From Nitrosococcus oceani ATCC 19707 (GTDB lineage Bacteria; Pseudomonadota; Gammaproteobacteria; Nitrosococcales; Nitrosococcaceae), in the NCBI RefSeq assembly GCF_000012805.1, contig NC_007484.1:2250001-2282000 (forward strand): a DNA stretch of 32,000 bases, in the 5' to 3' direction. Below are positions 4,922 to 26,819 of the stretch, piece after piece. Positions within the stretch are counted from its first letter, which is position 1, and every line of letters begins with the position of its first letter. The notes beneath the pieces are model-generated. The model was given only the letters and a program-made list of their open reading frames with translations. It ran no database searches and was not told where the DNA came from. The translations under genes and the position numbers were made by a program.

Positions 4922-7018
4922 TTACGAGTCTGATCGACTATGAGACTTCAATAGCCCTTTGAGCACTGCCGTTACCCGCTCTTCAAGGGCAGGGGCATTA
5001 TAGATAAGCCCTTCATCCAGTTGCTGGGCCACATGCCGCAACCAGTAGAGAGAGACAAAAGCGGCATGGTGGTTGGAATCGATACCACAACGATTATAGC
5101 TTTCCTCAAGAAATTGCTGCTCTTTCTCATTGAGCTGATCCTTATCCGCAAGCAATGGTATTGTCTGTGCAAGGCTCATATCAGCGTTCAAATAGCGATG
5201 GGCGCTTTCCAGATAGTTAAGCGCATCCAATATCGGTATCCCTAAAAGATCAGAATTATCCCAATCAATCACCCCGCTTATTTCGGAGCCTCGAACGAAA
5301 ATATTACTCGTGCTAAAATCGCCATGCGCTCGTCCACGGCGTACGCGCAGACCATATAGCTGATCTCGTAAATAGGATTTCGCCTCCTCTATAAGGGCTG
5401 GATCCTCTAAAGCGTCAGCTACTTGCTCTAGAGGTAAGCTCACTTGGTGCCGATAGAACTCGCCTGACAGTTCCTCTGGCGCCCGCTCATGGAAATCGGA
5501 ATTAAATATTTGTAAAAAACCCGCTACGGCCTTGAGAAAATCCAACTGGTTCTGTCTTCCCAACTCTGCTCGTAATAGCCGACCTTCCACCCGACTCTCG
5601 ACATAATAGGGCACCCCTTGAATTTTGCCTGCTGCGAGCGCTCGCGGAAGCAATTCCCGAACCTTCCCCATGGACGCCACCTGCTGAAGGAATTGATGGT
5701 TGCGCTCGGCGCCTGCTATAGCAGAATTATTAAAGGGTAATTTTACAATTATTGGACCATGCTTGGTATGACCACTGATGACTCCCTTGCCTTTGCCGGT
5801 CGTGTGGAAATGGGCGAAGGATACAGAATTCCCATCGAGGCTGAGCTGAGATTCAATCGCCGCCGCTATCTTCTCCGCTAACGACAAACCGGTAGGCACC
5901 CGTGGTGAAGCAATAATTCCGTAGGCGGGAACAAAATTCCGGCTGCGCCGGATATGATCAAAACCCTGAGAGCCAGGAGGCTGCCAAAGATGCTTATCCG
6001 TCTGGAGTGGGAGGAGTTCAGCCAGGTGAGTATAACCCGGGGCGAGCCCGTAAACTTCCTGGTGTGAGAATCCAGCGGCGTTAAGGAGCCGTCGGTAACC
6101 ATTGATGGAATAAGTATAAGTCCGGTAAGGACGACGAGCCACAGCGGTAGAGTAAATATTTGCTAAAAAACGGGGCAACAACGAAGCAAACCACAGACCC
6201 GAGTGGTGATCACGACGACCACCAAAATAGCGATAACTCAAACGGTTTTCAATAGCGATAAAAAGCTGACCTTTTGGCTTTAACACCCGCCGTATCTCGT
6301 TCAGGAAACGGAGCTGGATTTTACGCGGATTAGCAGCGCCAAAGAAACTTAAAAACGCCCCTGTTGCTTTTTCCAGCCGAGAACCCCCTCGATCCCAAAC
6401 GCTTTGATCATCGGCTACCCACTCTAATACGCCCGAAAGCGTTACACAATCCAAACTGCCATCCGGAAATGGCAGAGAGGCTCCATCGCCCCCAGCAAGC
6501 AATACGATATCGTCATTTGGATTGAAGCGATCAAAGCGTACCCGAGCCAGCTTAAGTCGTTCGAAAGTTAAGTCCAAAGCATACACGCGGCCTGCGCTTG
6601 GTGCGATATTTTTAGTCAAATTCCCTAGCCCGCAACCTAAATCAAGAACGTGGGCATTTGGCGGCAACCGTAACAGCAGCTTCCAGGCATAGCGACCGTC
6701 AGCAACCAGATTATCGAGCCAGTCGGGGTTTTGTCTCACCCCCCTAAGGAAACGCCGTACAGTATTCGCCCATGGTACGTGGTGCGCCTCACGGGTGAGC
6801 TCTCCCATTGCCTCCCGGGAGAGGGGATTAAAATAATAATCATGACGATGGCAACGAAAATCTATAATGCCATCACGAATGGGATAACTGGCGCCACAGG
6901 CAACACACCCAAGCTCTGTATCATTGGCCACAATGGCGCCAGCACAACGAGGACAAGCCAGGTCCTCTCGCTGGGTGCGATGCTCATGTGCCATGGTAGA
7001 GGCATCCAGCGAGCTCAT
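4922..7018 (-). CDS. Three-domain fusion: Trm112-like zinc ribbon, class I SAM methyltransferase and APH/choline-kinase-like phosphotransferase
   Basis: The track ORF is 4922..7030 with a TTG start. The first ATG, at 7018, follows GGGGAttaag. The zinc ribbon is CPRC...CVACGASYPIRDGIIDF (aa 26-58). SAM motif I is VLDLGCGLGNLT (aa 128-139), followed by RVLKPKGQLFI. Kinase motifs are IIVKLP, HGDFSTSNIFV and VIDWDNS (aa 569-593). Confidence 0.85.
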   Translation of the reverse strand: MSSLDASTMAHEHRTQREDLACPRCAGAIVANDTELGCVACGASYPIRDGIIDFRCHRHDYYFNPLSREAMGELTREAHHVPWANTVRRFLRGVRQNPDWLDNLVADGRYAWKLLLRLPPNAHVLDLGCGLGNLTKNIAPSAGRVYALDLTFERLKLARVRFDRFNPNDDIVLLAGGDGASLPFPDGSLDCVTLSGVLEWVADDQSVWDRGGSRLEKATGAFLSFFGAANPRKIQLRFLNEIRRVLKPKGQLFIAIENRLSYRYFGGRRDHHSGLWFASLLPRFLANIYSTAVARRPYRTYTYSINGYRRLLNAAGFSHQEVYGLAPGYTHLAELLPLQTDKHLWQPPGSQGFDHIRRSRNFVPAYGIIASPRVPTGLSLAEKIAAAIESQLSLDGNSVSFAHFHTTGKGKGVISGHTKHGPIIVKLPFNNSAIAGAERNHQFLQQVASMGKVRELLPRALAAGKIQGVPYYVESRVEGRLLRAELGRQNQLDFLKAVAGFLQIFNSDFHERAPEELSGEFYRHQVSLPLEQVADALEDPALIEEAKSYLRDQLYGLRVRRGRAHGDFSTSNIFVRGSEISGVIDWDNSDLLGIPILDALNYLESAHRYLNADMSLAQTIPLLADKDQLNEKEQQFLEESYNRCGIDSNHHAAFVSLYWLRHVAQQLDEGLIYNAPALEERVTAVLKGLLKSHSRSDS

Positions 7019-7131
7019 CTTAATCCCCAAAAAATACGTAACATTTTATTCTTCATAACTTATCCTAATTTAATAACCCTTTGGGGGAGTATCGGCAAGT
7101 TAGATGCGCCCAGGAGCCTTTGAGAAAGGGC

Positions 7132-9414
7132 TCAACTGCCCGGCCAGCAGAGAGAGAGCCCATCCAAGGTACCATGGGGATTCTCCAGAACCGCACCTGA
7201 ATGCCGGAGCTCAAGGACCGGTGTCCTTGCTGGGGCTCGCAAGGACAAGCCCATTGCCTCACCCTGCAATGACTGGCCTTCGAGCCAGCGCAGTATCGTC
7301 GGCACTCCAGCGATGGTCCGTAACCATAGCCAGACACCCTCAAAGCGAATGCCCCACGCCTCTATCCCCGGTGACGCTTCTTGCGGTCCTAGAAAAAGGT
7401 AATCCATCCGTTCGCCACAGGTAATTCGGAAAGCCAACCCGCCCTGGTGGCCCTGCATTCTCTGGAGCGAAACGGTCTCTGTTGGTTTTCTACCTGCTGC
7501 CAGCAAAAAGGCCGTTAATTCACGGTTTCCCTCACATTTTGTTCTTATCTGAGGGGCCGCCTCTAAGTGGCCATAGTGAGGTGATACCCACCCTCCCAAA
7601 GGAGCCAAACTGCCTTCAAGAACCTGGGGGGGGGTTAAACCCTCGCTAAAAGTGATGCCCAGCGACTCTTCATTCGTAACCACACAAATCTCATGGGGCG
7701 ATCTCCTTTCGACCTTTGCTCCCGGCACCCATTGTAGCCCGAAACTCGCCGCATCGGAGGAGATACCTTCCGGCAATTGGTCATAAACGAGCCAATATTC
7801 GCCGAGTACGTGGACTACCCCTCGGCAATAACTATCATAGGCGTTCTGGCTTTCGATTCTTCCCTCAACCCAAGCTCCTACAGCACCCGCAGTTAGGCGT
7901 GTCGTGGCTACCCGAGCGGCCACTTCCCGATCTCGGAAATCCCGCTTAAGAGAACCCAGCGGGTCGACACCCCGAATAGATAAACCGTTATGGGCTTCAG
8001 GTCCGGCAAAGTAAGCGCGCCACCGGGGAGAATCGGGCGGCCATCGTTCCGCCTGTGTCCGATAAGTATAAGTTCCTCCATCAACTACCATGGGATTTCC
8101 AGCCACACTAACATAGATGCCTAACAGATCTGCATGCATATGCCCCCCCATAAGCAACTTGCCAGTTGCTGGTCCGGTACGAAAAACTAGGCGAGTACCC
8201 TCATCAGGCTCAGAGAAAACAAAAAACCCGCCTACGGGGTAAGACTTAAAGCGCGGAGATCTTTTCAGTTCTACAGGCGAAGAAGCAAGCTCGCCGCCTA
8301 GCAGCCAAAACGCACGCTCAGCCGCTGAATCTTCATAAGGCGAGGGAGAAAGGCTAGAGTCAAAAAGCGCTCGATATAGCTCTCGAATAGCCGCACATCC
8401 CCACCCCTCTCCAATATCTAAGGGAAAAAGAGGGTCCTCCGTTCCATTGCCAATCGCTAACGGCGTTGTTTTTGGCCCGCTTAAATCTATCTGGAATGCC
8501 AACATCCGTTTCAATCGCTCCAGTATCCAATCTGGTACGGGGCGGTTATTCCGCCGACTCAAGATTACATAGGCGGCGGTCATTTCACAGGTATATTCTT
8601 GATAGTGAGTCGAATGCTCAAAACCCGTCCCGTCCTCATAAATCTGCCGGGCCAGTTCACGCAACCATAAGGACTCATAGCGTTCTAGCCATCCCCGCTC
8701 TTCGATAAATTCTGGAAACAAAAGCCCTATATACCAGCCCGCAAAGTTATCCAAAAGAAGATGGTTATTGGGGTAAGAATTTCCGAGACGGGGCGCTAAA
8801 AACCGCGCATCCGCATACAAAATCTTTAGCACGGCATGCTCCACAGCAGAGCAGCGACCCGAGTAGCTCGCATCGCCTCGCTTCGCAATCAGGAAAGCCA
8901 ACGCCCAGGAAAGAGCAATGAAGCGCTGAATAACGACAAGGTTACTGAGATAGGGGAGTTTTGAGCATCCAGCGCTAGCTACCTGCATCCAGCCCTCAAG
9001 GGTTGCAGCCAGTATAAATTCTAGCGGCGCACCATAAAGAATGGCTAAAGCCAAGCGTGGCGCAAAGGCAAAACGATGGGGCCGCGCGGCATAAAGCGCA
9101 TCCTCCCCTGGCCCATTGGTAAGCGAGTTCCATGGAAATGCTTTTCCAAGAAGATCCCCGCGTCGGCCATACGTTATAAGACCAGTGCTGCAATCCGAAT
9201 AGGCACGTTCAAGAAGCCGTCCCCGCCACTGGGGCCGCTCAGCCGCCACTTGCTCCGCAGCCGCCCTGAGTGAAACTGGATCTGCAAAAAACGCGGGCTC
9301 AGCGTCTATCCCTACCTTCCTCTCAATGACCCTAGAAGCGCTGAAGGTTGGGCAATAAGGAACGGCAGATTCTCGCCCAAACCAACTGCGAAAACGTGAC
9401 GAAACTGATTTCAT
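7132..9414 (-). CDS. Heparinase II/III-like (alginate-lyase-like N-domain plus Hepar_II_III C-domain) protein without a signal peptide
   Basis: 760-aa ORF with ATG start. Motifs are RPHRFAFAPRLALA, SYPNNHLLLDNFAGW, GGHMHADLLGIYV and GPEAHNGLSI. The N-terminus MKSVSSRFRSWFGRESAV has no hydrophobic h-region. Confidence 0.75.
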   Translation of the reverse strand: MKSVSSRFRSWFGRESAVPYCPTFSASRVIERKVGIDAEPAFFADPVSLRAAAEQVAAERPQWRGRLLERAYSDCSTGLITYGRRGDLLGKAFPWNSLTNGPGEDALYAARPHRFAFAPRLALAILYGAPLEFILAATLEGWMQVASAGCSKLPYLSNLVVIQRFIALSWALAFLIAKRGDASYSGRCSAVEHAVLKILYADARFLAPRLGNSYPNNHLLLDNFAGWYIGLLFPEFIEERGWLERYESLWLRELARQIYEDGTGFEHSTHYQEYTCEMTAAYVILSRRNNRPVPDWILERLKRMLAFQIDLSGPKTTPLAIGNGTEDPLFPLDIGEGWGCAAIRELYRALFDSSLSPSPYEDSAAERAFWLLGGELASSPVELKRSPRFKSYPVGGFFVFSEPDEGTRLVFRTGPATGKLLMGGHMHADLLGIYVSVAGNPMVVDGGTYTYRTQAERWPPDSPRWRAYFAGPEAHNGLSIRGVDPLGSLKRDFRDREVAARVATTRLTAGAVGAWVEGRIESQNAYDSYCRGVVHVLGEYWLVYDQLPEGISSDAASFGLQWVPGAKVERRSPHEICVVTNEESLGITFSEGLTPPQVLEGSLAPLGGWVSPHYGHLEAAPQIRTKCEGNRELTAFLLAAGRKPTETVSLQRMQGHQGGLAFRITCGERMDYLFLGPQEASPGIEAWGIRFEGVWLWLRTIAGVPTILRWLEGQSLQGEAMGLSLRAPARTPVLELRHSGAVLENPHGTLDGLSLCWPGS

Positions 9415-9501
9415 TAGGCAAAAATCTTAAAACTTCAATGGGAGCTATTAAGGAGAAATGCCACTCTCCCTTGATCGGATAAATCGTCCACCAAGGTTTC
9501 T

Positions 9502-10626
9502 CTATTTGCTAGGGCGAGCGTTCTTACGCGCTTCAGCGGAAAGCGGCTGCCGATCAGGCTGATAAAGCCATACATTGTCATCCACATTGTTAATGGCAAC
9601 GAACACATCGTTCTTTGGAGCATAGCGCCAACGCCCAAAAGTGCCGGCAGAACTCTTATTAGGGGTTGGCCCCTCGCCACTAGGTATATCAACCCTCCAG
9701 GTAAGTTTAGCAGGATCAAGGATATAGACCTCATTTGTCTGAGCACCGCGACACTTAGGGGCTCTGCCACACCAGGCGACGATTTGATCCCCGACGGGAT
9801 CATAGGCGACACCAGGAGAACGGGTGTTGACAATTGCATCACCCCCCTTAGTGGGAATAGCCGCCAGCGTAAAAGGAGGGTGAAGGAGAAGTGTATTGAC
9901 GGTTCCATCACCCACAAACCAAATCTGGTGGCGCTTAGTATCCAACGTGCCAGTTCTAAAGAGCATATCTAAGTCGATCCCCGAAATTTTTTTCGTCCAC
10001 TTGTTAGTAAAAAAATTAAAACTGAATAATGCCTGTTGTACTCTTGAACTATTTTTAGCATAAACCTCTCGACTTTCTGGGTCATAAATAATCTGCACAT
10101 AATTATCTCCCACCGGGCTAGTACGCTTTTTTAACTTCCAGCTTCTAGTAATAGGATTAAAGGTCCAACTATCCTGAAGAGTGCCCCCATTCCAACAAGA
10201 AGTTCCTCCCCCAAATAAGAAGAGCTCACTAAGATGGTCAATCCAAGCCAAATGGTTATAGGTATGCCTAGCGGTCGGTGTAAGTCCTCCGTCCCAAGTA
10301 CTGTAGCAAACGGTCTTGGCATCAGCTGTGGGTATGGTTGGGTCCGTCAAGCGAGTCCACTTTTCAGTATCAAGGTCGAACGCATAGAGCTCATTACCAT
10401 AATACCCGCCATGGCCACCTCCCATAAGAAGCATCCGGTTGCCCACCGGATCGAAGGCTCCTCCAGACCAACTTTCAATAACTGCTGCGCAGTCTTTCGT
10501 CGAAGGCTTAACCAACTCACTTGGGCAAACCTGCCGCATATGGCTATCGGGGATCTCTATCCAAGTTCCTGCCTGCGTGGCAAAACCCATCAACATCAAA
10601 GTAGCATAGATGGAAAGGCGGTACAT
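9502..10626 (-). CDS. Secreted Kelch-like beta-propeller protein
   Basis: 374-aa ORF. ATG follows AGGGAG plus a 5-nt spacer. The signal peptide is MYRLSIYATLMLMGFATQA|G. Kelch-type blades recur: LLMGGGHGGYYGNELYAFDLDTEKWTRL and LFLFGGGTSCWNGGTLQDSWTFNPITRSWKL. Confidence 0.7.
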   Translation of the reverse strand: MYRLSIYATLMLMGFATQAGTWIEIPDSHMRQVCPSELVKPSTKDCAAVIESWSGGAFDPVGNRMLLMGGGHGGYYGNELYAFDLDTEKWTRLTDPTIPTADAKTVCYSTWDGGLTPTARHTYNHLAWIDHLSELFLFGGGTSCWNGGTLQDSWTFNPITRSWKLKKRTSPVGDNYVQIIYDPESREVYAKNSSRVQQALFSFNFFTNKWTKKISGIDLDMLFRTGTLDTKRHQIWFVGDGTVNTLLLHPPFTLAAIPTKGGDAIVNTRSPGVAYDPVGDQIVAWCGRAPKCRGAQTNEVYILDPAKLTWRVDIPSGEGPTPNKSSAGTFGRWRYAPKNDVFVAINNVDDNVWLYQPDRQPLSAEARKNARPSK

Positions 10627-10813
10627 ATTGTCTCCCTAATTAATAAGGACAATGATAAGATATTAAATGACTATGCATTCGCCTAAACTATGAGTGAATA
10701 GACTCCTAAATGTTACTCGCCAACCTGCCAAACCTATGAACATAACCTACTGGCAAATCCAGAAAAACCCACAAATTGCGAATACAACTAACCCAAGCTT
10801 AGATTTGCCATAA

Positions 10814-12175
10814 TTATGAATGTAAAGTCACATGGCTGACCACATAACGAAATTTCCCTGATCGTTCAGGCGGTATCTCTGCAACTGGTTCAACATTCAC
10901 ACGGACTCCCTTCCCCAGCCGATCTTGAAAATCCCGCCGAATGCCATCTTCAACGGCACGGCTATACCCACCATTAACAGGCACCAACAATACCCGCATT
11001 TCGGTCTTACTTTCTTGGATGATCTTGAACGATTCGATTCCCGGCAAATCGCGCAAGACATAAATCAGCGCAAGCCCATGCATTACCGTGCCATCCGCTG
11101 CTACGATAAAGTCTGTCGTTCGTCCCTGGATTTCTTTAAGTACTGGTAGGGAGCGCCCACAACCACACAACTGGTCGTCAAAAACCGCTACATCACCAGT
11201 GCGATAGCGAATAAAGGGAAATTCTTTAGTAGCAAGATGAGTAATCACTACCTCACCGGGCTCCCCTGCCGCTACCAATTTCCCCGCTTGATCAACCAAT
11301 TCCACCACAATGTCCTCTGCCGTAATGTGTAAGCTGCCCTCCGGGCACTGATGGGCAACAAAACCTGCATCACGCCCGCCATAGCCGTTAGCGACTCGAC
11401 ATCCAAAGGTAGACTCGATATCACTATATTGATCCTCATAGAGGCGTTCCGCAGTAACAAAGGCAACCTGTACCCCAAGATCGTTCATGGACCCGCCCCG
11501 CTTTTGCACATGACGTGCAATGTGAGCAATGGCACTTGGATAGCCAAATAACATCTTTGGGCGCAAGCGCCGGATCTCAGCGATAAAATAGTCGAGGTTG
11601 CGCTCGGACATATCAAATGCTGACAATAGACGAGTCCGCAAAAGATGATCACGCCACTCTCGCAAACGGTTCTGAGCCCCAAGCTCTACCGGCGACCCCC
11701 ACACCACTACCTCAGGATCGCCGATATCGACTCCCCACCAGCGGGTTGCCCGCCATTTAGCAGCCACATCGTGACCTACCCGCTCTTTACCTAAATAGAA
11801 AATCAAAGGCTCACCTGTAGAACCACCCGTATTAAAGCGTACAAGAGAGCTAGCATTGTCCGCTTTGAGAACATCCATATTCGCCCGTATTAGATCCTTA
11901 GTAAGAAACGGCAGCTTTGGCAAATCCTCTGGAGAACGAATGTCATTGGGACCGATCCCCGCTTCTGCAAACAGTTTCCGATAGTAAGGCACTTGTTGAG
12001 AAGCAAACTTAATTAATCTTCGCAGGCGTGCTGCCTGAAATTCCGCCAGGCGATCTGCCGACCACCACTGGCTGGTTTCAAGTTGACGTAAAATCCGAAC
12101 CGTCCCATGCCCCTTAATGTACTCGTGGAGTGGAAAAATAAATCTTGAAATAAAATGGGTGGCAAGAGTCGTCAC
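10814..12175 (-). CDS. PaaK/CapK-like adenylate-forming enzyme (phenylacetate-CoA ligase / F390 synthetase family)
   Basis: 453-aa ORF. The GTG start overlaps the upstream TGA as GTGA at 12172-12175. Motifs are FNTGGSTGEPLIFY, FIRYRTGDV and the C-terminal ERSGKFRYV catalytic-Lys box. Confidence 0.8.
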   Translation of the reverse strand: MTTLATHFISRFIFPLHEYIKGHGTVRILRQLETSQWWSADRLAEFQAARLRRLIKFASQQVPYYRKLFAEAGIGPNDIRSPEDLPKLPFLTKDLIRANMDVLKADNASSLVRFNTGGSTGEPLIFYLGKERVGHDVAAKWRATRWWGVDIGDPEVVVWGSPVELGAQNRLREWRDHLLRTRLLSAFDMSERNLDYFIAEIRRLRPKMLFGYPSAIAHIARHVQKRGGSMNDLGVQVAFVTAERLYEDQYSDIESTFGCRVANGYGGRDAGFVAHQCPEGSLHITAEDIVVELVDQAGKLVAAGEPGEVVITHLATKEFPFIRYRTGDVAVFDDQLCGCGRSLPVLKEIQGRTTDFIVAADGTVMHGLALIYVLRDLPGIESFKIIQESKTEMRVLLVPVNGGYSRAVEDGIRRDFQDRLGKGVRVNVEPVAEIPPERSGKFRYVVSHVTLHS

Positions 12176-13428
12176 GAACGAAACTCCTTGGACACCGGCT
12201 TTACCCTTGTTCCTATCTTGTTCCCATCAACAAGTGCCTCAAATTCCTGAACCAATACTTCAACCCGGTAATCCCAATGGTTCTCACAGGCATGCTTCCG
12301 TATTGCCGCCCGATCCCAAGAATGAGAAAGCGCCTCGCGCAAAGCCGCTTCTAAAGCTTTTGGATCACCAAAAGGTACCACTGTACCCAGCTGGATATCG
12401 GAAACAACCTCGCGGTTTCCACCCACCTCAGTGGTAATTACCGGAAGCCCGCATGCCATTGCTTCTAGAAATACATTGGCCCAGCCTTCGTTACGGGTCG
12501 CTAGTACAAAAACATCCGCAGCTGAAAGAGGCCACTTAAGCTGCTGGGAAGGCAAAGCCCCAAGAAAATGCACGGATTCCCCCAACCCAAGGCTCTGAAC
12601 CTGACGCCGAAGCTGTTCACTCATATCTCCCTCGGGCCCAGATCCACCAATAATGAGATAATGCAGATCCGGAAATTGCTCTCTAAGCGCTGGTAATACC
12701 TCAATAACTCGATGGAAACCTTTGCGCTCAACAAGTCCACCCACAGAAATAAGAACCGGTCCCTCTGAAGGTAATTTAAAACGGCGGCGAGCTTCTACTC
12801 TGGATACAGGGGTAAATTTTTCTGTATCTACTCCATTACCCACAACCCGTATTTTTTGAGAATCGGCCCCTAAGCCGATCACATGGCACTTCAAAGAAGC
12901 AGCGACAGCAAATACGCGTGTCGCGCCTGCAAGTCCTTTGAGCATCAAACGGCGACGAAAAGGGAATCGGGCAATGGGTACCTCCGTGCCCCGGAGAGTG
13001 ATAGTCACTGGCACCCCAAACCAGCGTCCAAGGAGTGTCGCAGCGTACCCCTCAGGGTAGGCAAAATGGGCATCAATGAGACTGAAACGATGACGCAATT
13101 GCCATAAAGTGGGGACGACAGCAAACGCTAGGGACCATCCGTCGAGCCATTTAAAAAAACCAGGAACCGAAAGAAACCGGGGCCGGTAAATTTCTACTCC
13201 GTCCTGAATTTCTCGCCGCGGTGCTGGCGGGCGGAAGTGGGGTCGCAGGCGACGTAAAAAACTCTGACCAGGAAACCACGGGGTGGGCGCGACCACGACC
13301 AAAGGTAAGTGCCTTCCTACCCGGAACATCCTCTCGCGGATAAAAAGCCCAGCACTTGGCTGTCCCTCATGAGGGAAGAGAGTGCTAATAACGAGTAATT
13401 GGGGCTGGTTTTTTTTCACTATCTGCAT
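12172..13428 (-). CDS. GT4-family glycosyltransferase
   Basis: The track ORF extends to 13635, but that would overlap the upstream gene by 250 nt. The ATG at 13428 (MQIVKKNQPQLLVISTLFP...) is the more plausible start, and it remains uncertain. The EX7E region is EGWANVFLEAMACGLPVITTEVGGNREVV. Confidence 0.8.
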   Translation of the reverse strand: MQIVKKNQPQLLVISTLFPHEGQPSAGLFIRERMFRVGRHLPLVVVAPTPWFPGQSFLRRLRPHFRPPAPRREIQDGVEIYRPRFLSVPGFFKWLDGWSLAFAVVPTLWQLRHRFSLIDAHFAYPEGYAATLLGRWFGVPVTITLRGTEVPIARFPFRRRLMLKGLAGATRVFAVAASLKCHVIGLGADSQKIRVVGNGVDTEKFTPVSRVEARRRFKLPSEGPVLISVGGLVERKGFHRVIEVLPALREQFPDLHYLIIGGSGPEGDMSEQLRRQVQSLGLGESVHFLGALPSQQLKWPLSAADVFVLATRNEGWANVFLEAMACGLPVITTEVGGNREVVSDIQLGTVVPFGDPKALEAALREALSHSWDRAAIRKHACENHWDYRVEVLVQEFEALVDGNKIGTRVKPVSKEFRS

Positions 13429-14635
13429 GCCCGTCGATGACGGTGTCATAAACTTGCTGATAACCACTAACGCTCCGTGCCCAGGTGCGCTCTTGCTCGA
13501 CAAACCGGCGGGCGGCCTTACGTATCTCCGACCAATCATTGCGGCGCTGAATAATACTGAGAAGAGATCCCGCCAAAATTTCTGGATTCCCTGGTGAAAA
13601 TAGAAATCCTGTTTTCCCTTCCTGGATAAGTTCACAATGGCCGCCCACCTTAGAGGCTGCTACTATCCGCCCTCGGGCCATGGCTTCTAGGGGTTTAAGG
13701 GGAGTCACCAACTCGGTGAGCCGCATCGGTAATCGCGGATAGACGAATATATCTACCAAATCATAGTAACGTGTCACTTCTTCATGGGAAACCCGGCCTG
13801 TAAATACTATCTGGCGAGTTATTCCCAATTCTTGAGCTAACGCCCGCAGATCCTCCGCCTCCGGACCCCCACCCACCAAGAGCAAACGCGCCTCGGGCGC
13901 TGCGCGCAGCAGCGCCGGCATCGCTCGAACTAAAAGGCTTAAACCTTCGTAGGCATAAAAAGATCCTATGAAACCCAATACGGGCCCCTTCCCCAATCCC
14001 AAGGAATGGGCAAATACTGGATCGGGACGGCTTGCTCCCACTGAAAAGCGTTCAATATCAACGCCGTTCGGGATAATAGTCACCTTATCCGCCGGGACGC
14101 CGCGAGCAAGAATGTCACGGCGTAACCCTCCGCACAACACTGTAATGGCATCAGCGCGCTGAAATACATACGTTTCTAGCCCACGACTCAAACGGTAACG
14201 AATTCCTCCCCGGGTACTCGTTCCATGATCCACTGCGGCATCCTCCCAAAAAGCCCGGCACTCATAGACCACAGGTAAACCAGCGCACCGTCCAGCGCGC
14301 AGCGCGGCTAAGCCATTTAGGGCAGGAGAGTGAGCATGCAAGATATCAGGTTGCTCACGTTGAATTACTTCTGCAAGCCGGCGCTCAAGACTGCGAACCA
14401 CAGCTAATTGGCTGAATGCTGAAAGCTGTCCAGCGAGTTCTCCCCCAGGCAAGGTTCTATGGAAGCGGAATTCTTCTAGGATCTCTTCTTTAGCAGGGGC
14501 TTTGCCATGCTTGGCGCCCGTTACTTGGGCAGTTTCCCAGCCGAAAGCTCGTTGCTGCTTGAGGATTGCCCAAGTGCGAAAAGTATAGCCGCTCTGGAGA
14601 GGCAATGAGTGATCGAGCACATGAAGGATTTTCAC
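13385..14635 (-). CDS. GT4 glycosyltransferase of the exosortase A-associated type (recalled as TIGR04063-like)
   Basis: GTG at 14635-14633 overlaps the TGA of the upstream gene as GTGA, with GGAG 11 nt upstream. The N-terminus is VKILHVLDHSLPLQSGYTFRT, and the sequence contains PLKPLEAMARGRIVAASKVGGHCELI. Confidence 0.8.
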   Translation of the reverse strand: MKILHVLDHSLPLQSGYTFRTWAILKQQRAFGWETAQVTGAKHGKAPAKEEILEEFRFHRTLPGGELAGQLSAFSQLAVVRSLERRLAEVIQREQPDILHAHSPALNGLAALRAGRCAGLPVVYECRAFWEDAAVDHGTSTRGGIRYRLSRGLETYVFQRADAITVLCGGLRRDILARGVPADKVTIIPNGVDIERFSVGASRPDPVFAHSLGLGKGPVLGFIGSFYAYEGLSLLVRAMPALLRAAPEARLLLVGGGPEAEDLRALAQELGITRQIVFTGRVSHEEVTRYYDLVDIFVYPRLPMRLTELVTPLKPLEAMARGRIVAASKVGGHCELIQEGKTGFLFSPGNPEILAGSLLSIIQRRNDWSEIRKAARRFVEQERTWARSVSGYQQVYDTVIDGHADSEKKPAPITRY

Positions 14636-17322
14636 TCTGCATACACTCCGCTTTCTATCCAATCGGCTAATATTTCTAGCTCCGCCTCATTTAAGGTCCA
14701 GGGATGATCAGGGCCAAAATCGATATCATTGGAGCGATCCTCATCGGCGCGGCCATCTAGCCGTTGGCCGGCGGCTTTCCAATACAATAAACTCTCCCGC
14801 GCAAAAAGCATATGGACGTACTTGCTAAGCCAGGGGCGATCCATCCGGCCTGGCGGCGAGGCGCCCTTAATATCTACCGGAGGGGGCTCAAACAGGTGCT
14901 GGGCGTTAATATTATTGGCAAGTTGCCAATAGGTACTTCCTTTATCTGTACCTGGCCGATCCAGGGTTAAGCCGTCAGGAGCTTCATCCCCACTATGACA
15001 GGAAGCGCAGTTTTTCTGAAGCAAGGGGAAGACATCCTGCGCCCATGTCCATTCAGGAACCGAAGACTGCTTTAAAATTACTGGTGGATTTTGAGCCGCA
15101 AGGCTTTCTTCGAATTTCGGAGTCTGATTGGTGCTATGAAGGTGACACCCACCGCAAGTATGGAGTTCTCCTGGCCGCAGGGATTGCACTACTTGATCCC
15201 GAGCAATGGCGCGGCCCTTGCTATCCACTCCCGCCATTAAGTAGGGCATATCGCAAGGGAGTGAGGCAAGAAAAGAACCATCTTCCTCTAGCGGTACATC
15301 CCCCAAGATTCGGGTCCGGATGCCTTGGGAACCATTGAAATCAGAAGTTCGCATCCTGTGCTTAAAAGGGATTACCTCCCAAAACCGTATTTTTACCATT
15401 TCTGACAAATCTATTCCGTGGGTAGAGCAGCCCTGAAGAGCACAGGGGGTCCGGTCTGGAAATTGCCCTTCTCCACCATAATTTCTCACCTCTGCCTTCA
15501 TGGACGCCGCCCCTAGCAAGCATTGTCCAGAATCCGTCGTTTTAATAGGAGGAGTCGCCACCTGGCGCGAGCGCACTAGCCGCGGCATAAACTCTTGCCA
15601 ATCGGGACTATCTACCACCACTAAGGTATTTGTTTCGGCGGCAGGATTTGCCGGAATTCGTGTAGTACGGTAAATACCTGCGTCACAACCCAATTTACGC
15701 TTTTGCACGTCACCTTTGAAATGATTGAAATTAGCAGTATGGCAATACCCCTGTAACCAGGTAAATAATAAATTACCATCTGGAAGTCCCTCAGGATCGC
15801 GCGCGCGCCCCCGCTCATCCGCTGGTATATCGTTACTCCCACCCGCAATTGCTAAATATAAGCCACGGGGCTCAAATGTCGCCTTTTGGGAAAGAGCGCT
15901 CACCGGACTTTCTCCCTCTACATTTCCCGGCTCTACGGGCCAACATAGAATAGTGCCTCCCCCCGAGTTGTTTCCCCGATAATAGTTAGCAGTGCACATA
16001 TCGCCGTTTGCCCGCTCGCCAAGGAAATGGAGTGCCTTGAGAGTATGTAAACCTCGATCAATGGACGCTTGCCTGGTATGCGCGCCCAATTCCGCTTCTA
16101 GACTACCTCCTCGCTGGTCGACCGACATCACCCACCAGAGATTATCCTTGGTACCAAATAAAACCTGCAGCCCCCCTCTGCCGCGGTAAGGCAACATATT
16201 TACTATCTGCCAGGAACTATACATAATCCGACCCGTCTTGCTATGAAGCCACGGGTGCATGGCATTATCTCGCTCATGGGGTCCCACCCGAACTGCCTTG
16301 CTCCCATCTGCTTCCGCCATCCAAAGTTGAAGTGTAGGATGCCATCCTGACGAACCAAGCACACTGGGCCAGTCTCCTGCTCGAGTCGAGGTAAACATAA
16401 TACGATCATCTGGAAGCCACACGGGCCCAGTATCCCAGCTTCCAGGCATATGCGGCCAAGCAACCAATTTGCCGGTCGTAAGATCTAACGTGAAAATTTG
16501 CGCCTCTGCTCCCTTCCGAGCCAACGCTTTATTCGGGATCTCTACTGGAAAACCTCTCGGTTGCCGGTTATATAAGTGGGCGGCACGATAAACGCTAAAA
16601 GCTATCCGAGTGCCATCTAGGCTAACAGCAATATCCATAGGAACACATGGACGGGGCTCCGGAAAAACACAATCATAGAGAATTTCCTCACGTCCATCGG
16701 CACTCCGGTACACCAGCTGACCAGGGCCTGAAAATCTCCAAAGCCGCGCAGTGACATCAGGGAGTTCATCATAGATTCCAAGGTTTCCAAAAATCTTCCC
16801 ATTGATTTCAATTGTAGAGGTAGTGCGAGGAATACGCGTATAAACTATTCCCTCATCCATGTTCCACACATCTTCGGGCTTAGGCTGGGGAATTTCATCC
16901 TTGGGGGAATCACTGGCTACGCCCTCCCACTTTTGATACCTCTCACTACTACCGTTAGTTTTTTCAGTTTCTGGTAGCCTGCGGACAGTTCTGCCCCCTT
17001 CACCTTCTGGCTCAAACTGTAGGCGTCCGTCCCTGACTAGCTCGTCACTATCGCTGGCGTTTTCACTTCCCGGCAATCTTCGGAAAGTTCCGCTCCCTTG
17101 GGCTCCGAAAAGCCGCTGGCGGGCCTCTGGAAGCCACTCGCCACTGCCTTGAAGAGAAATATTGCTTGCAGCAACTCTGAGAGGAGAAACCTTCTGACTA
17201 TCCTTATCGCCACTGGCAGCAGTGGGGACAGCTCCTTGCAACATCCCAAGCAAAACGCAAGCCATAATCCGATGATTAAATACCAACATAACCAAAACTC
17301 TCAAAGATTTTGAGTTAAGCAA
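14632..17322 (-). CDS. Secreted PD40/TolB-like beta-propeller protein with two CXXCH heme-binding motifs and a C-terminal Planctomycete-cytochrome-c-like (PSCyt1-like) domain
   Basis: 896-aa ORF with TTG at 17322; the first ATG is at 17289. The hydrophobic leader is IMACVLLGMLQGAVPTAAS|G. PD40-like blades include IAFSVYRA and GPVWLPDDRIMFTSTRAG. CGGCH is at 15156-15142 (aa 723-727) and CASCH at 15009-14995 (aa 772-776). The context DVFPLLQKNCASCHSG...LNEAELEILADWIESG is typical of PSCyt1 domains. Confidence 0.75.
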   Translation of the reverse strand: MLNSKSLRVLVMLVFNHRIMACVLLGMLQGAVPTAASGDKDSQKVSPLRVAASNISLQGSGEWLPEARQRLFGAQGSGTFRRLPGSENASDSDELVRDGRLQFEPEGEGGRTVRRLPETEKTNGSSERYQKWEGVASDSPKDEIPQPKPEDVWNMDEGIVYTRIPRTTSTIEINGKIFGNLGIYDELPDVTARLWRFSGPGQLVYRSADGREEILYDCVFPEPRPCVPMDIAVSLDGTRIAFSVYRAAHLYNRQPRGFPVEIPNKALARKGAEAQIFTLDLTTGKLVAWPHMPGSWDTGPVWLPDDRIMFTSTRAGDWPSVLGSSGWHPTLQLWMAEADGSKAVRVGPHERDNAMHPWLHSKTGRIMYSSWQIVNMLPYRGRGGLQVLFGTKDNLWWVMSVDQRGGSLEAELGAHTRQASIDRGLHTLKALHFLGERANGDMCTANYYRGNNSGGGTILCWPVEPGNVEGESPVSALSQKATFEPRGLYLAIAGGSNDIPADERGRARDPEGLPDGNLLFTWLQGYCHTANFNHFKGDVQKRKLGCDAGIYRTTRIPANPAAETNTLVVVDSPDWQEFMPRLVRSRQVATPPIKTTDSGQCLLGAASMKAEVRNYGGEGQFPDRTPCALQGCSTHGIDLSEMVKIRFWEVIPFKHRMRTSDFNGSQGIRTRILGDVPLEEDGSFLASLPCDMPYLMAGVDSKGRAIARDQVVQSLRPGELHTCGGCHLHSTNQTPKFEESLAAQNPPVILKQSSVPEWTWAQDVFPLLQKNCASCHSGDEAPDGLTLDRPGTDKGSTYWQLANNINAQHLFEPPPVDIKGASPPGRMDRPWLSKYVHMLFARESLLYWKAAGQRLDGRADEDRSNDIDFGPDHPWTLNEAELEILADWIESGVYAE

Positions 17323-21785: not shown

Positions 21786-23372
21786 TTATGTTCTCTCTGA
21801 TACTGACTGGCAAGCTAGCATTGCGCCTGAGGTAGAGACTGCCGGCATCTCATTCAAAAATTTTAGCAGGAGCGCACGGGCTTGCTCCGGCTTACCGCTA
21901 TCCGCAGCTACAGCGATGAGCGTGGAGCCGCTTGGCTGCTTGGTAAGATGAGCCCAGGCTTCAAGAAATTTAGCTTTTATCGGACTAGCCGTTCGCTGGC
22001 CAGCAATATCATACCAGTGCCAAATGACGCGCAGCGTATTAGGGGAACGGATAACAGTTTCATGCACTTGGAGATGATCATCACCAAGGGAGAGGCTTCG
22101 GCGATTATCTTCCATCCAACGCCAAATTTGATCATCATAGAGGCGATTTTGAGAACTAATAAGTTCAGCTCCTTGATGCTCTTGCTGATAATAGATAATT
22201 AAAAGCTGTACCGCACTATCATCTGGGAATGAATAGAGACGGCGCACGATTTGATCTGCTTGGGAATAATCTGGCTCCCACATACTGGTCGGGACGGAAG
22301 AACCACTCCAGACCGGCTGCTCCTTAGGCATAGACACCGAACAGTCGGTTTTCGATGCTTGGCCTTTAAACCAAATTCCACTCGCGGGACCGGCACCGGC
22401 CACCAGGATCAGTATAATAGTAGTTACACCCAGTTTTTTTGCACGGGGGGCCTGCTGGGCGACAATCCCTCCAGATTGCCGAGACAACGAGGCCCTGTTG
22501 CCGGGGCACTTATCCTCGCGCCAGAACGATCCCAGCCAAAAGAGTAACGACATGACTACGCCAAAGAAAATCCACCCGTAAACAACATGGTCCACGCCGG
22601 TCGCCAACTTCATATTACTGAGGTAAGCCAGCATAATAACGCCGTAGGCCCGGATACCATTAGCAATAATAGGTACGATAACCGAAGCCACAATAAATGC
22701 CGCGCGGCGCCCATAACTAGAATAAGTAAGATAAGCGTAGAGGGTGCCAAGAACAACCGAAGTAATAAGGTAACGCAGCCCGCTACAAGCTTCCGCAACC
22801 AGAAAATCCCCCGAGGGAATACTAATATAACGCCCTTCCCAGTAAACCGGCACTCCACCGAATTGCAGGCTTTTGACAGCAAAAGCGGCTGTAAAATCTT
22901 GCAGCGGCGGAATTAAAAATTCACCAAACGGTACCGCAAAAACCAAGTAGACAAGTGGAAACGCCAACGCGCGAACGACCCTCTTTCCCAATAACCCCCA
23001 CACCACTACCGGAATCATGGCCACCAATAACAATTGTTCGACAAATAGCACGTCCGCAATCCTAGCCAGTAACCATCCCCCGGATAATAGCAGAATAAAG
23101 AATGCGGCTAGTGGCCGAGGATGGGGTTGAAGCTGCTGGAGCTGCCACCGTCGCGCCCAGATCATATAACCGCTAACCGGAAAAATGAGCATACCATGGG
23201 CAAAGGTCGCAGAACGCCACCAAATAGCCGCCATGGATACTGCGGTTTCCAGATAAAACAGGAATAGGGCAAGCAACACCACAGCTATTGCCACCGTTGC
23301 CAGAGGCCAACTTAGCACCCAATGGGCCTGTTGCCTATCTAGGTACCGCTGTTCGGTCGGGTTCATCTGCAT
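21786..23372 (-). CDS. xrtA: Exosortase A (XrtA/EpsH) fused to a C-terminal EpsI-family domain
   Basis: ATG 23372 follows GGAG plus aaaaaa; the track ORF starts at GTG 23405. The N-terminal half is polytopic and carries the exosortase catalytic signature FLVAEACSGLRYL (Cys at 22787-22785), NGIRAY and DHVVYGWIFFG. An extra TM helix (LGVTTIILILVAGAG) is followed by a soluble domain of about 190 aa (LLIIYYQQEH...IWHWYDIAG) of EpsI type. Confidence 0.9.
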   Translation of the reverse strand: MQMNPTEQRYLDRQQAHWVLSWPLATVAIAVVLLALFLFYLETAVSMAAIWWRSATFAHGMLIFPVSGYMIWARRWQLQQLQPHPRPLAAFFILLLSGGWLLARIADVLFVEQLLLVAMIPVVVWGLLGKRVVRALAFPLVYLVFAVPFGEFLIPPLQDFTAAFAVKSLQFGGVPVYWEGRYISIPSGDFLVAEACSGLRYLITSVVLGTLYAYLTYSSYGRRAAFIVASVIVPIIANGIRAYGVIMLAYLSNMKLATGVDHVVYGWIFFGVVMSLLFWLGSFWREDKCPGNRASLSRQSGGIVAQQAPRAKKLGVTTIILILVAGAGPASGIWFKGQASKTDCSVSMPKEQPVWSGSSVPTSMWEPDYSQADQIVRRLYSFPDDSAVQLLIIYYQQEHQGAELISSQNRLYDDQIWRWMEDNRRSLSLGDDHLQVHETVIRSPNTLRVIWHWYDIAGQRTASPIKAKFLEAWAHLTKQPSGSTLIAVAADSGKPEQARALLLKFLNEMPAVSTSGAMLACQSVSERT

Positions 23373-24624
23373 TTTTTTCTCCACCAGTGGCCTCTTTTGC
23401 CACACTAATTATAGGCGCGAGGGAGGGATGAGTAAGCAACTCCGAGAAACGTTCTAGGTGATTATCCCAATGGTAATTTTGTAAGACATGCTCCCGGCCC
23501 TTCCTACCTGCCTCCTTTCCCTTTCCCTGCAGCAATACGGCAATAGTTTTTGCTGCAAATTGATTCGGCGTTGCACTCACTAGATTCTCACATACCGGAG
23601 GCAAAACAATACCCTCGGCGGCCTCTGGAGTAGCTATCACAGGCCGGGCCATGGCCATCGCCTCCAACAACTTGTTTTGAACTCCACGGGCAATCCTCAG
23701 AGGCGCTACCGCAGCTCGGGCATGGGCTAAATAAGGACGCATATCCGCCACAGTACCTGTCACATATACTTGCCGCTCTGCCGAGAGACGCCGTACAGCT
23801 TCAGCCGGTTGCGTACCCACAATATAGAAACAGGCCGCAGGAACCACCGCTAGAATCTTCGGAAAAATAGTTTTAGTAAACCAAATTACCGCATCTATAT
23901 TAGGACGGTAATTCATGGCACCAGTAAAAACCAACACCCGCTGCTCCGGAGGATACGGAGAAGGATAATGCCGATCCGGGGAGAAAAAATCCGTATCGAC
24001 CCCATTAGGCGCAGCAAATACTTGTTTCGCCACTTCTGGAGCTAAACGGCGGAATAACTCAGCCTCCACCGAGGAAACAAATGTTGCAGCTTTTGCTTGC
24101 GCAGCTATTTTTCGCTCGAAGGCCAAAAGAGTACGGGCTTCACGCTGATAAACCCAAGACAAAGGAGGACTCGATGTCTGACTATAAGCATGCCATTTCT
24201 CTGAATCCACATCCACAAAATCGACAATAGCTGGCACTTGCCGGGGAAGCATAGTTATATACTGAGCCATCACAGAGGAAAACACCACAACGCCTTCCAA
24301 GGAAGGCCGAGCAGCGATGTCTTGCACCCAGCGGCTCATGCAACGATCTTTATAGTAAGCTAAACCAAGCGGCTTACCGGCTACCAACGCTGTCAGGGAT
24401 CGGGCCAATGCGAGAGCCCGCGGTAGCGGCCGCAGGCAAAGCTCATCTACCCCTAACCGATGAAGGTCTGAAGCATATTTCCAGTCTACTGGATCGTCCA
24501 CGAAAGCGCCTACATGGACACGATAACGGCTGGCAAGAAAGCGCAACAAATGATAAGAACGTATTTTATCGCCTTTATTGGGGGGAAAAGGTATCCGGTG
24601 CGCAAGGAATAGAAGATCACCCAT
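23335..24624 (-). CDS. Sugar transferase, PEP-CTERM/EpsH1 system-associated type ('stp1', recalled as TIGR03087-like)
   Basis: ATG 24624 lies 10 nt after the upstream TAA; the track ORF starts at 24654. The N-terminus is MGDLLFLAHRIPFPPNKGDKIRSYHLLRFLA, and the sequence contains GVQNKLLEAMAMARPVIATPEAAEGI. The 3' end overlaps the xrtA start by 38 nt. Confidence 0.85.
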   Translation of the reverse strand: MGDLLFLAHRIPFPPNKGDKIRSYHLLRFLASRYRVHVGAFVDDPVDWKYASDLHRLGVDELCLRPLPRALALARSLTALVAGKPLGLAYYKDRCMSRWVQDIAARPSLEGVVVFSSVMAQYITMLPRQVPAIVDFVDVDSEKWHAYSQTSSPPLSWVYQREARTLLAFERKIAAQAKAATFVSSVEAELFRRLAPEVAKQVFAAPNGVDTDFFSPDRHYPSPYPPEQRVLVFTGAMNYRPNIDAVIWFTKTIFPKILAVVPAACFYIVGTQPAEAVRRLSAERQVYVTGTVADMRPYLAHARAAVAPLRIARGVQNKLLEAMAMARPVIATPEAAEGIVLPPVCENLVSATPNQFAAKTIAVLLQGKGKEAGRKGREHVLQNYHWDNHLERFSELLTHPSLAPIISVAKEATGGEKNADEPDRTAVPR

Positions 24625-25699: not shown

Positions 25700-26551
25700 T
25701 TAATCTTGCTGCAAAAAAACGCGATCCATGCGATCCCAACGGAAATCGCCTATTAGCCATAATAATCGTTGCTCCATATGTTGGAGATTAAGATAGTGAC
25801 GAACACGTGTTTTCATGCTGATCCCCCGCTGGCGCGGCTGTTCAGGATCTATCTCCCAAGGATGGAAATAAAAAATGCAGGGCTGGCCATCAAGCTGGTT
25901 AACCCGGCGTACTGCCCAGCGAAATAAACCATAAGGAAAAAGGCGAAAATACCCACCACCGCCGCAGGGGAATTTGTGCCCCGATAACTCGACGGTGCTT
26001 ACCGGAATTTCGAGAAGAGAGGGGGCTGCTGGAGGATAAAACGCAAAGCGGGGCGCTTCGGGCATGCCGTATAGATCGTGATGTATCGGATAAATGCTCG
26101 AACTATAAAGATAACCTGTTTCAGCAAGCACCTCATGCGCCCACAGGTTGCTTCTGCCGATGGAATAACTTGCCGCCCGATAACCCCTCACAGCGGTGCC
26201 TGAGAGATCTTCTAGTAATTTACGGGTACGGGATACATCCTCACGAAAGTCGTCTCTATTTTGTTGTGTTACTCGTATGTGAGAGAAACCATGGGAAGCA
26301 AGCTCATGGCCCGCTTCCACGATACGCTGTATAAGGGTTGGGTAGCGCTCTGCCACCCAACCTAGCATAAAAAAAGTAGCAGATATCTCCCGATCAGCAA
26401 AAAGCTGCAGTATCCGATCAGTATTTTGCTCAACCCGGCAAGGCAACTTATCCCAACCGCCTCGTGCAATAATATTTTCAAAGGCGGATACCTGGAAATA
26501 ATCTTCCACATCCACAGTCATGGCATTAGTGATTGGCTCTGGCTGCTTCAA
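25700..26551 (-). CDS. Polysaccharide deacetylase, PEP-CTERM locus subfamily (recalled as TIGR03006-like)
   Basis: TTG 26551 follows AAGGAG plus a 7-nt spacer; an alternative ATG is at 26521. Motifs are MTVDVEDYFQVSAFE, ATFFMLGW, ASHGFSH and FYFHPWEIDPEQP. Confidence 0.9.
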   Translation of the reverse strand: MKQPEPITNAMTVDVEDYFQVSAFENIIARGGWDKLPCRVEQNTDRILQLFADREISATFFMLGWVAERYPTLIQRIVEAGHELASHGFSHIRVTQQNRDDFREDVSRTRKLLEDLSGTAVRGYRAASYSIGRSNLWAHEVLAETGYLYSSSIYPIHHDLYGMPEAPRFAFYPPAAPSLLEIPVSTVELSGHKFPCGGGGYFRLFPYGLFRWAVRRVNQLDGQPCIFYFHPWEIDPEQPRQRGISMKTRVRHYLNLQHMEQRLLWLIGDFRWDRMDRVFLQQD

Positions 26552-26796: not shown

Positions 26797-26819
26797 GTTT
26801 CTAAAATATCTTTTAGCTA

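Follow-up and report, generated by a model that had tools for sequence, protein, structure and literature searches.

A hydrazine synthase alpha-related di-heme propeller protein encoded in an XrtA/PEP-CTERM exopolysaccharide locus of Nitrosococcus oceani

The stretch of DNA analyzed here, called the window throughout, comprises 32,000 nucleotides from Nitrosococcus oceani ATCC 19707 (NC_007484.1, positions 2,250,001 to 2,282,000). The whole window is a canonical XrtA/PEP-CTERM locus for exopolysaccharide (EPS) synthesis, and all of its genes, including every window feature given below by coordinates, lie on the minus strand. Within this locus the gene Noc_1974 (14632-17289) encodes a di-heme propeller protein of 885 amino acids (aa), which is related to hydrazine synthase alpha (HzsA) and which matches WP_011330818.1 exactly. 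We hold the identity of this protein and its linkage to EPS loci with high confidence. Database names for the protein include "hypothetical" and "PD40 domain-containing". Noc_1974 is located between the gene for an XrtA/PEP-CTERM amidotransferase upstream (TIGR03108; 17359-19290; 1146 bits vs a cut-off of 817) and stp3 (Noc_1973) downstream, which codes for an XrtA-system glycosyltransferase (TIGR04063; 13385-14635; 625.7 bits vs a cut-off of 442). It has the same orientation as both and is four genes away from Noc_1978 (21786-23405), which encodes exosortase A fused to EpsI (TIGR03109, 341.9 bits vs a cut-off of 208, and TIGR02914).

An earlier note, made from the letters of this DNA alone, described the open reading frame (ORF) at 14632-17322 as a protein of 896 aa with a leader peptide. 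The ORF was found at this place and a signal peptide is predicted; the start, however, had to be corrected. The count of 896 aa begins at a TTG, while the annotated ATG at 17289 gives 885 aa. The true extent of Noc_1974 is 14632-17289, because the orthologs and the catalogued 885-aa product start at this ATG. MLVFNHRI is the start of the RefSeq record and, without exception, of the orthologs in N. watsonii, N. halophilus and related metagenomic sequences. The in-frame extension of 11 codons up to the TTG (17290-17322) is missing from the orthologs and from the RefSeq protein; judged from this comparison it is probably not translated. Residue numbers in the following still refer to the 896-aa numbering.

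At the other end of the gene the TGA stop codon (14632-14634) overlaps the GTG start codon of stp3 in the sequence GTGA (14632-14635). The TIGR04063 model starts exactly at this GTG, with a GGAG 10 nt upstream, and the identical 4-bp overlap is annotated in N. halophilus (L039). The overlap with an exosortase-A-type glycosyltransferase gene, which the earlier note had pointed out, is hence real, and Noc_1974 and stp3 are probably translationally coupled in N. oceani.

The protein begins with a predicted Sec signal peptide, MLVFNHRIMACVLLGMLQGAVPTAAS (17212-17289), and hydrophobic N-termini are kept in the homologs. The covalent attachment of c-type heme needs Sec export and periplasmic maturation; we therefore infer that Noc_1974 works outside the cytoplasm. 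The signal peptide is followed by a charged linker of ~120 aa (16858-17211), which is rich in Ser, Gly, Glu and Arg and is predicted to be disordered (pLDDT <50 for aa 1-152). The linker contains the repeats TFRRLPGSE (17062-17088) and TVRRLPETE (16963-16989). These had been noticed before, in a stretch described as acidic and of low complexity; the repeats are present, and the acidity of the region is mild (21 D+E vs 17 K+R). In an alignment of 22 family sequences, on which the statements on conservation below are based, the linker is limited to the Nitrosococcus clade. Its dN/dS is 0.17 vs 0.06 for the core of the protein. In our reading this region is a flexible linker, specific to the lineage, that follows the signal peptide. 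In some homologs (alignment members P0006 and P0018) lipobox-type signals (LTAC, LAAC) are followed by Ser/Gly-rich linkers; the family would thus include membrane-tethered lipoprotein forms, with linkers analogous to the disordered one in Nitrosococcus.

The folded part of the protein starts with a TolB/PD40-like beta-propeller (15403-16857; aa ~156-640), which is all-beta in the structural model. As suspected from the sequence of its blades, it contains a PD40 match in Pfam (aa 293-318; 26.3 bits vs a cut-off of 20.9). Next comes the HZS_alpha middle domain (15118-15402; aa ~641-735), which was delimited with PF18582, phmmer and a profile alignment to 5c2v_A. PF18582 (HZS_alpha) matches aa 664-727 with 48.4 bits vs a gathering cut-off of 26.6, which makes Noc_1974 a member of this family and supports the earlier suggestion that the first heme motif resembles that of the HzsA middle domain. 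The match terminates at this motif, C723-G-G-C726-H727-L-H729 (CxGCHxH; 15136-15156), which aligns with CSGCH587 of HzsA. The C-terminal class-I cytochrome-c-like domain (14635-15060; aa ~755-896) is homologous to the heme alpha-II domain of HzsA. It carries the invariant heme-2 motif C772-A-S-C775-H776 (14995-15009), which aligns with CAMCH of HzsA, and the equally invariant His873 (14704-14706), the predicted distal ligand of heme 2. The latter aligns with chain residue H745 of 5c2v_A, which is alpha-His772.

Both CXXCH motifs named in the earlier note are thus in place. From composition 0.006 such motifs are expected per protein; Noc_1974 has two and is the sole carrier of CXXCH among the 21 ORFs of the window. 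The assignment of the second motif to a PSCyt1 domain failed. PF07635 gave no match to Noc_1974 at E<=1; in the family 2 of the 22 homologs match, with a best E of 0.0039, which is below threshold. The HMMER searches that had been proposed as a check therefore place PD40 and HZS_alpha above their cut-offs and give nothing for PSCyt1. For want of Pfam support we dropped PSCyt1 as the identity of the heme-2 site in favor of the C-terminal heme alpha-II domain of HzsA. The region around motif 2 has generic cytochrome c matches in Pfam, all of them sub-threshold, and across the family the matches of Cytochrome_CBB3 and PccH over the C-terminal domain are sub-threshold as well. The AlphaFold2 model of the protein has a pTM of 0.71, with a confident propeller and middle domain. 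The C-terminus, ...LADWIESGVYAE, has no PEP motif and no hydrophobic tail; Noc_1974 is thus not a PEP-CTERM sorting substrate.

The similarity to HzsA extends over both heme domains and the propeller. In a phmmer search against the PDB sequences 5c2v_A was the only match, with two stretches covering both heme domains. The first stretch (query 658-730) comprises the middle domain up to the CXXCH of heme alpha-I; the second (query 760-892 vs 5c2v_A 646-764) comprises the heme alpha-II domain. A profile from the 22 family members matched 5c2v_A with E=1e-17. The best Foldseek matches of the model were chains D and A of 5c2v (E ~1e-20, ~905 aligned columns, TM 0.57), and the runners-up were TolB propellers (E ~1e-9), in which only the propeller was covered. 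Because 5c2v is the only full-length structural match and the TolB matches are limited to the propeller, Noc_1974 is a full-length structural homolog of HzsA and more than a carrier of its middle domain. With HzsA of Kuenenia stuttgartiensis (PDB 5C2V chain A) it shares the order of propeller, middle heme domain and C-terminal heme domain, both CXXCH motifs and the distal His of heme alpha-II, at an identity of ~13%. With TolB of the Tol-Pal system it shares the periplasmic PD40 beta-propeller fold. Membership in the TolB family was rejected, since the TIGR02800 equivalog scores 16.7 bits vs a cut-off of 343; furthermore, Noc_1974 has no TolB N-terminal domain, and TolB is heme-free.

The two heme sites differ in how closely they follow HzsA. 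In HzsA the motif residue His587 binds Zn, and Tyr591 ligates the iron of heme alpha-I (PMC12758564, PMC12607021). The HzsA sequence CSGCH-Y-G-S-Y591 aligns with CGGCH-L-H-S-T731, which means that the Tyr591 ligand is absent from Noc_1974. The equivalent position varies within the family, while H729, two residues past the motif His, is invariant. At the second site C772xxC775H776 and H873 are invariant, and H873 aligns with His772, the distal ligand of heme alpha-II in HzsA (PMC12758564). From this alignment we predict that two His residues ligate heme 2, as they do with heme alpha-II in HzsA.

The full-length fold similarity and the presence of the middle domain and of both heme sites raise the question whether Noc_1974 is a genuine hydrazine-synthase-type enzyme, which forms N-N bonds in a nitrifier. 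This explanation is effectively refuted. The HzsA equivalog NF052339 reaches only 35.6 bits vs a cut-off of 800, in a local match to aa 657-732. A search for HzsB/HzsC partners found no other ORF with CXXCH in the 32-kb window and no such neighbors in the homologous loci examined. In addition, the homologs occur mainly in aerobic heterotrophs. Because the equivalog score fails, Tyr591 is absent and no beta or gamma homolog lies nearby, we conclude that Noc_1974 is not a hydrazine synthase. Its hosts are aerobic and its context is EPS biosynthesis, rather than anammox as for HzsA.

HzsA-like proteins from outside the anammox bacteria have been described as clades I-IV, in Planctomycetota and Desulfobacterota. 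They keep the CXXCH of heme alpha-I, are without Tyr591 and have no assigned function; they are defined by a co-located fused beta-gamma homolog, often with an FG-GAP propeller, and most members are without heme alpha-II or its distal His (PMC12758564). The Noc_1974 subfamily resembles these clades in that it keeps the heme-1 CXXCH and has no Tyr591. It differs from them in that it is stand-alone, has both heme-2 ligands, is gammaproteobacterial and is linked to EPS. The HzsA-like or hzs-like genes have been proposed to be a broad family with alternative substrates (PMC12758564, PMC10732223); an EPS link of these proteins is mentioned in neither paper.

Noc_1974 is intact and under strong purifying selection. 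In comparison with N. halophilus dN/dS is 0.08 overall and ~0.06 in the core, with dS near saturation. The alignment contains ~90 invariant columns even though identity goes down to 37%. In the heme domains the invariant residues are C723, G725, C726, H727, H729, C772, C775, H776 and H873; in the propeller they are R163, R166, H356, H415, H432, Y447-Y448-R449, N451-N452, E469 and D498. The motif ESLLYWKA is also invariant, and PF18582 is matched by 22/22 aligned homologs. CxGCHxH occurs in 40 of the 41 homologs derived from loci, nearly all of which have exactly two CXXCH motifs. The conservation of the two motifs, on which the earlier note had let its cytochrome assignment depend, is therefore complete in the aligned homologs.

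The family is large. An exhaustive profile search, counted as 50%-identity representatives, returned 5,918 proteins at E<=1e-3, 2,186 at E<=1e-10 and 304 at E<=1e-30. Longer relatives are fused to Big, cadherin-like, PKD and TSP3 modules; these fusions and the lipoprotein signals fit an exported family that is located in the envelope or at the surface. In distant relatives two HZS_alpha genes (L050, 5014-7956 and 8001-11780) adjoin each other and have a sulfatase and an AraC regulator as neighbors; one of the two is a fusion with HEAT repeats and a discoidin (F5/8 type C) domain. The discoidin fusion and the sulfatase neighbor are a weak hint of glycan-related roles in the wider family. In a metagenome-assembled genome (MAG) of the Salinisphaerales (L022) two HZS-like paralogs (1376-4582 and 6589-9504) are found on the same strand, ~2 kb apart and just downstream of a Kelch gene; one of them has a single CXXCH. 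A distant homolog (P0023) in a phage-like region had no Pfam match and was disregarded as marginal.

The genes around Noc_1974 are those of a typical XrtA/PEP-CTERM EPS locus. The order starts with a Wza-like exporter, a TIGR03007 chain-length determinant, a TIGR03018 tyrosine kinase and a TIGR03016 outer-membrane protein. It continues with a TIGR03006 deacetylase, TIGR03019 FemAB, stp1, XrtA-EpsI, stp2, WecB and the TIGR03108 amidotransferase. After the latter follow the heme protein, stp3, a family 4 glycosyltransferase (GT4), a CapK/PaaK-like ligase, a secreted Kelch propeller and a heparinase II/III-like protein, and the order ends with a methyltransferase-kinase fusion, a second deacetylase, a TPR protein and a second AsnB-like protein. 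Small PEP-CTERM ORFs were not found in the window. A scan for promoters and terminators between 12 and 20 kb gave nothing above the shuffled expectation, which is consistent with one long operon. Haft et al. 2006 listed Noc_1978 as EpsH and Noc_1971 as CapK. Among the XrtA components listed there is no heme, cytochrome or propeller component.

The data in the following indicate that the position of Noc_1974 in such a locus is not a peculiarity of one genome. A genome scan for homologs yielded 38 loci, and the EPS context was tallied over 40 informative loci. By our tally ~29 of these 40 have an EPS context of the XrtA or Wzy type. In ~20 loci, from Halieaceae, Porticoccaceae and Pseudohongiellaceae, the homolog lies <=10 kb from close homologs of the window's amidotransferase, stp3, stp2 and CapK-like ligase. 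In Porticoccus (L008) and Haliea salexigens (L006) the neighbors exceed the curated TIGR cut-offs; those passing are TIGR03088, TIGR03108, TIGR04063 and TIGR03097, of which the last, the exosortase-A-associated O-glycosylation ligase, is located 1-2 genes upstream of the heme gene. A second arrangement (L009, L042, L047) consists of Wzy_C/DUF5935, GT2, the HZS-like gene, a flippase, a sulfotransferase and a pyruvyl transferase. In L042 XrtA-EpsI itself lies upstream, and L047 has in addition the exosortase-A-associated set of ligase, decarboxylase, ACP and hydrolase. The third arrangement is that of Nitrosococcus, with the same position and overlap in N. halophilus. Sulfotransferases are frequent beside the EPS-linked HZS-like genes, which is a weak supporting hint for glycan chemistry.

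In a neighbor-joining tree the Nitrosococcus proteins group with a clade from Dokdonella, Wenzhouxiangella and Salinisphaerales that is not EPS-linked; the proteins from Cellvibrionales form a separate, EPS-linked clade. EPS linkage is thus found in at least three gene orders and at least two clades of the tree, counted without a formal phylogeny-corrected statistic. The survey of synteny, which the earlier note had asked for, shows that homologs recur in the XrtA/Wzy-type EPS loci of other families. For a random gene we would expect a place <=10 kb from an XrtA cluster in roughly 1-2% per genome. Because the linkage spans clades and gene orders, it argues for a functional connection to EPS and not for a single inherited accident.

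These data also bear on the trivial explanation, namely that Noc_1974 was inserted by chance or is decaying and does nothing for the locus. Noc_1974 does interrupt the adjacency of amidotransferase and stp3 that is found in Cellvibrionales, and the homolog in the Porticoccaceae MAG AC1.2 (L032) is split into two ORFs. But the intact reading frame with its low dN/dS, the same position and overlap in N. halophilus and the recurrence of EPS linkage in independent clades all contradict this explanation, which we consider highly improbable. The two ORFs in L032 overlap (8414-10771 / 10768-12198), and the respective database protein (P0022) is a fragment of 729 aa; it may represent a frameshift pseudogene or an assembly error.

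The connection is that of an accessory. None of the XrtA-associated NCBIfam models matches Noc_1974. Contexts outside EPS loci, or uninformative ones, are found in Dokdonella, Wenzhouxiangella, Bdellovibrio, Myxococcota, one Parahaliea paralog, Methylomarinum and two orphan metagenomic contigs. Because it matches no XrtA model, is missing from the components of Haft 2006 and has many homologs outside EPS loci, Noc_1974 is a recurrent accessory of XrtA/PEP-CTERM, Wzx/Wzy-type EPS loci and not a core component.

A possible partner is the secreted Kelch beta-propeller protein encoded in the window (9502-10626; Kelch matches in Pfam). Kelch homologs overlap or abut the HZS-like genes in Dokdonella, Wenzhouxiangella and Salinisphaerales (L040 10229-11284; L046 4486-6645; L022 9-1409). 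We rejected the Kelch protein as a universal partner; jackhmmer matches were limited to the loci of Nitrosococcus, Salinisphaerales and, weakly, Dokdonella, and did not include the EPS-linked loci of Cellvibrionales. It may be a lineage-specific partner. A galactose-oxidase-type enzyme was also considered for this protein and rejected, as the PDB gave generic Kelch matches only.

The earlier note had suggested a periplasmic part in polymer binding, oxidative tailoring or sensing. We tentatively propose that Noc_1974 is a periplasmic di-heme redox tailoring enzyme of the EPS pathway, a reading to which we give somewhat less than even confidence. After Sec export and Ccm-dependent attachment of its hemes the protein would act in the periplasm or at the cell surface. 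The bis-His heme 2 would serve as the entry or exit for electrons, in exchange with soluble periplasmic cytochromes. Heme 1, which would be ligated by His and not by Tyr as in HzsA, would be the catalytic site; it would lie at the interface of propeller and middle domain, where HzsA has the proposed catalytic heme alpha-I. Since His587 of HzsA binds Zn, the invariant His729 may by analogy serve as the site of a metal, structural or auxiliary. As its substrate the enzyme would tailor, by oxidation or reduction, the lipid-linked repeat unit after flipping, the nascent polymer or a component of the matrix that is exported along with it.

The general design is known from other enzymes. In cytochrome cd1 nitrite reductase and in quinohemoprotein alcohol dehydrogenases a catalytic propeller is combined with a c-type heme domain that is linked to periplasmic electron carriers. 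Noc_1974 shares this design of propeller plus cytochrome c; however, neither enzyme gave a sequence match or a top structural match to it, and heme d1 and PQQ are unsupported. Redox proteins in glycan production have a precedent in the CslA/GlxA/DtpA system of Streptomyces, where a Kelch-type copper oxidase and a heme peroxidase are encoded with, and required for, the production of an extracellular glycan. The claim of the earlier note that redox cofactors are unexpected in EPS loci was in this respect somewhat too strong. The window operon, too, contains a gene for a Kelch propeller. The heme protein families are nevertheless unrelated, the Kelch protein here is without a galactose-oxidase match, and the pathway is synthase-dependent in Streptomyces but of the Wzx/Wzy-XrtA type in N. 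oceani.

Several observations weigh against a tailoring enzyme. About a quarter of the homologs are found outside EPS loci, so that the chemistry is not strictly EPS-specific, and the canonical XrtA loci of 2006 are without this gene (Haft 2006). Noc_1974 has no carbohydrate-binding module, and the model is of low confidence in its C-terminal domain (aa 804-873). In HzsA the distance between heme alpha-II and the other hemes is too large for electrons to be transferred efficiently (PMC12607021); the proposed relay from heme 2 to heme 1 may fail for the same reason.

The same features can be read in another way, in which the propeller binds a polysaccharide or a partner and the hemes only shuttle electrons. 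Noc_1974 would then be an electron-transfer cytochrome anchored in the matrix or the envelope, which creates a redox-active EPS layer or serves an oxidoreductase as its partner, for example the Kelch protein. Heme 2 keeps both His ligands of a bis-His heme, and relatives are fused to modules of surface type (Big, PKD, cadherin-like). The EPS of Geobacter anchors c-type cytochromes. A Kelch propeller is translationally coupled in the sister clade and is also present in the operon of the window. Most EPS-linked loci, however, are without a Kelch partner. The ~90 invariant residues, many of them polar and in the propeller, exceed what a carrier or scaffold usually needs, and in HzsA the domain homologous to the middle domain is the catalytic one with heme alpha-I. 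Moreover, the hosts are mostly aerobic and, to our knowledge, not noted for extracellular electron transfer. We regard this alternative as unlikely.

The members of the family outside EPS loci also invite the suggestion that the protein does not act on polysaccharide at all and is a redox enzyme for small molecules such as peroxide, NO, hydroxylamine or other reactive species, which would be expressed together with the matrix as a protection. The host, as an ammonia oxidizer, produces NH2OH and NO. The homologous site of HzsA handles small N-compounds (PMC12607021). Against this, most of the EPS-linked homologs are from heterotrophs that do not nitrify, and Tyr591, the source of the special chemistry of heme alpha-I, is absent. 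The tight placement among the genes for glycosyltransferases, Wzy-like proteins and flippases in several orders is also hardly explained by co-regulation alone. Together, these points make a purely small-molecule function quite unlikely.

A few homologs adjoin two-component systems (L045, L035), and heme domains are common as sensors, so that a periplasmic heme-based sensor of redox state or gas, which tunes EPS production, has to be considered as well. Noc_1974 is, however, without a transmembrane or output domain, a conserved transducer partner does not occur across the loci, and the window locus contains no adjacent regulator. We also know of no established class of covalent c-type di-heme propeller sensors. 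A sensor function is therefore very unlikely.

Other genes of the window suggest further modifications of the polymer. The heparinase II/III-like protein of 760 aa (7132-9414), with Hepar_II_III_N and _C domains, might be a lyase or an epimerase that acts on a polymer containing uronic acid; its gene is kept in N. halophilus and was not found in the Cellvibrionales loci. The fusion of a Trm112-like zinc ribbon, a class I SAM methyltransferase and an APH-type phosphotransferase (4922-7030) suggests methylation and/or phosphorylation of the polymer. In the second AsnB-like amidotransferase (490-2313) the model match begins at about position 99, and the glutaminase domain is seemingly reduced at the N-terminus; homologs of this protein adjoin the HZS-like gene in four Halieaceae loci (L005, L019, L028, L037). 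The longest ORF for the GT4 protein (12172-13635) shares 250 nt with the 3' end of stp3. Family alignments begin at about residue 80, and the annotation of the N. halophilus homolog has an overlap of 38 nt; the GT4 gene probably starts near 13400. The G+C content is 0.42-0.45 at 2001-4000, 10001-11000, 26001-27000 and 29001-31000 vs ~0.50-0.54 elsewhere in the locus. These segments of low G+C suggest that the EPS cluster is in part of mosaic origin.

Part of this picture is already known: the HZS_alpha or HzsA-related family has a name, the gene is in RefSeq, and recent papers recognize a broad HzsA-like family. A literature search found nothing on Noc_1973-1975 or Nwat_1771 and nothing that links a hydrazine-synthase-like protein to an exosortase, which is in line with the earlier note that no such component had been described for XrtA systems. 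What appears to be new is a stand-alone subfamily with no beta-gamma partner, with both heme sites, both heme-2 ligands and the CxGCHxH motif. The same holds for its repeated occurrence in XrtA/Wzy EPS loci of aerobic Gammaproteobacteria.

The consequences are twofold. A conserved c-type cytochrome gene is present in loci that have so far been regarded as systems of glycosyltransferases, export and sorting and nothing else. This suggests a redox modification or a redox-active matrix component, which could matter for floc formation in nitrifying and marine particle-associated bacteria. For the HzsA-like family, of which a 2025 survey counted hundreds of proteins, none with an established function (PMC12758564), XrtA/Wzy EPS assembly is the first concrete and testable pathway context; nothing in the previous view is overturned. 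The link to a defined pathway bears on the origin of hydrazine synthase; the hosts of the subfamily include the cultivable aerobes Haliea, Parahaliea and Nitrosococcus. A more speculative idea, which we consider rather unlikely as it stands, is that the widespread ancestral role of the HzsA fold is not nitrogen chemistry but a redox chemistry that depends on heme and acts on glycans, either periplasmic or on the cell surface, with Noc_1974 and its relatives in Cellvibrionales catalyzing a new step of oxidative or reductive tailoring or cross-linking in XrtA/Wzy EPS assembly. If this were true, these proteins would constitute a new class of redox enzymes for bacterial EPS biosynthesis, and their hosts would provide aerobic, cultivable models for the evolutionary precursor of hydrazine synthase.

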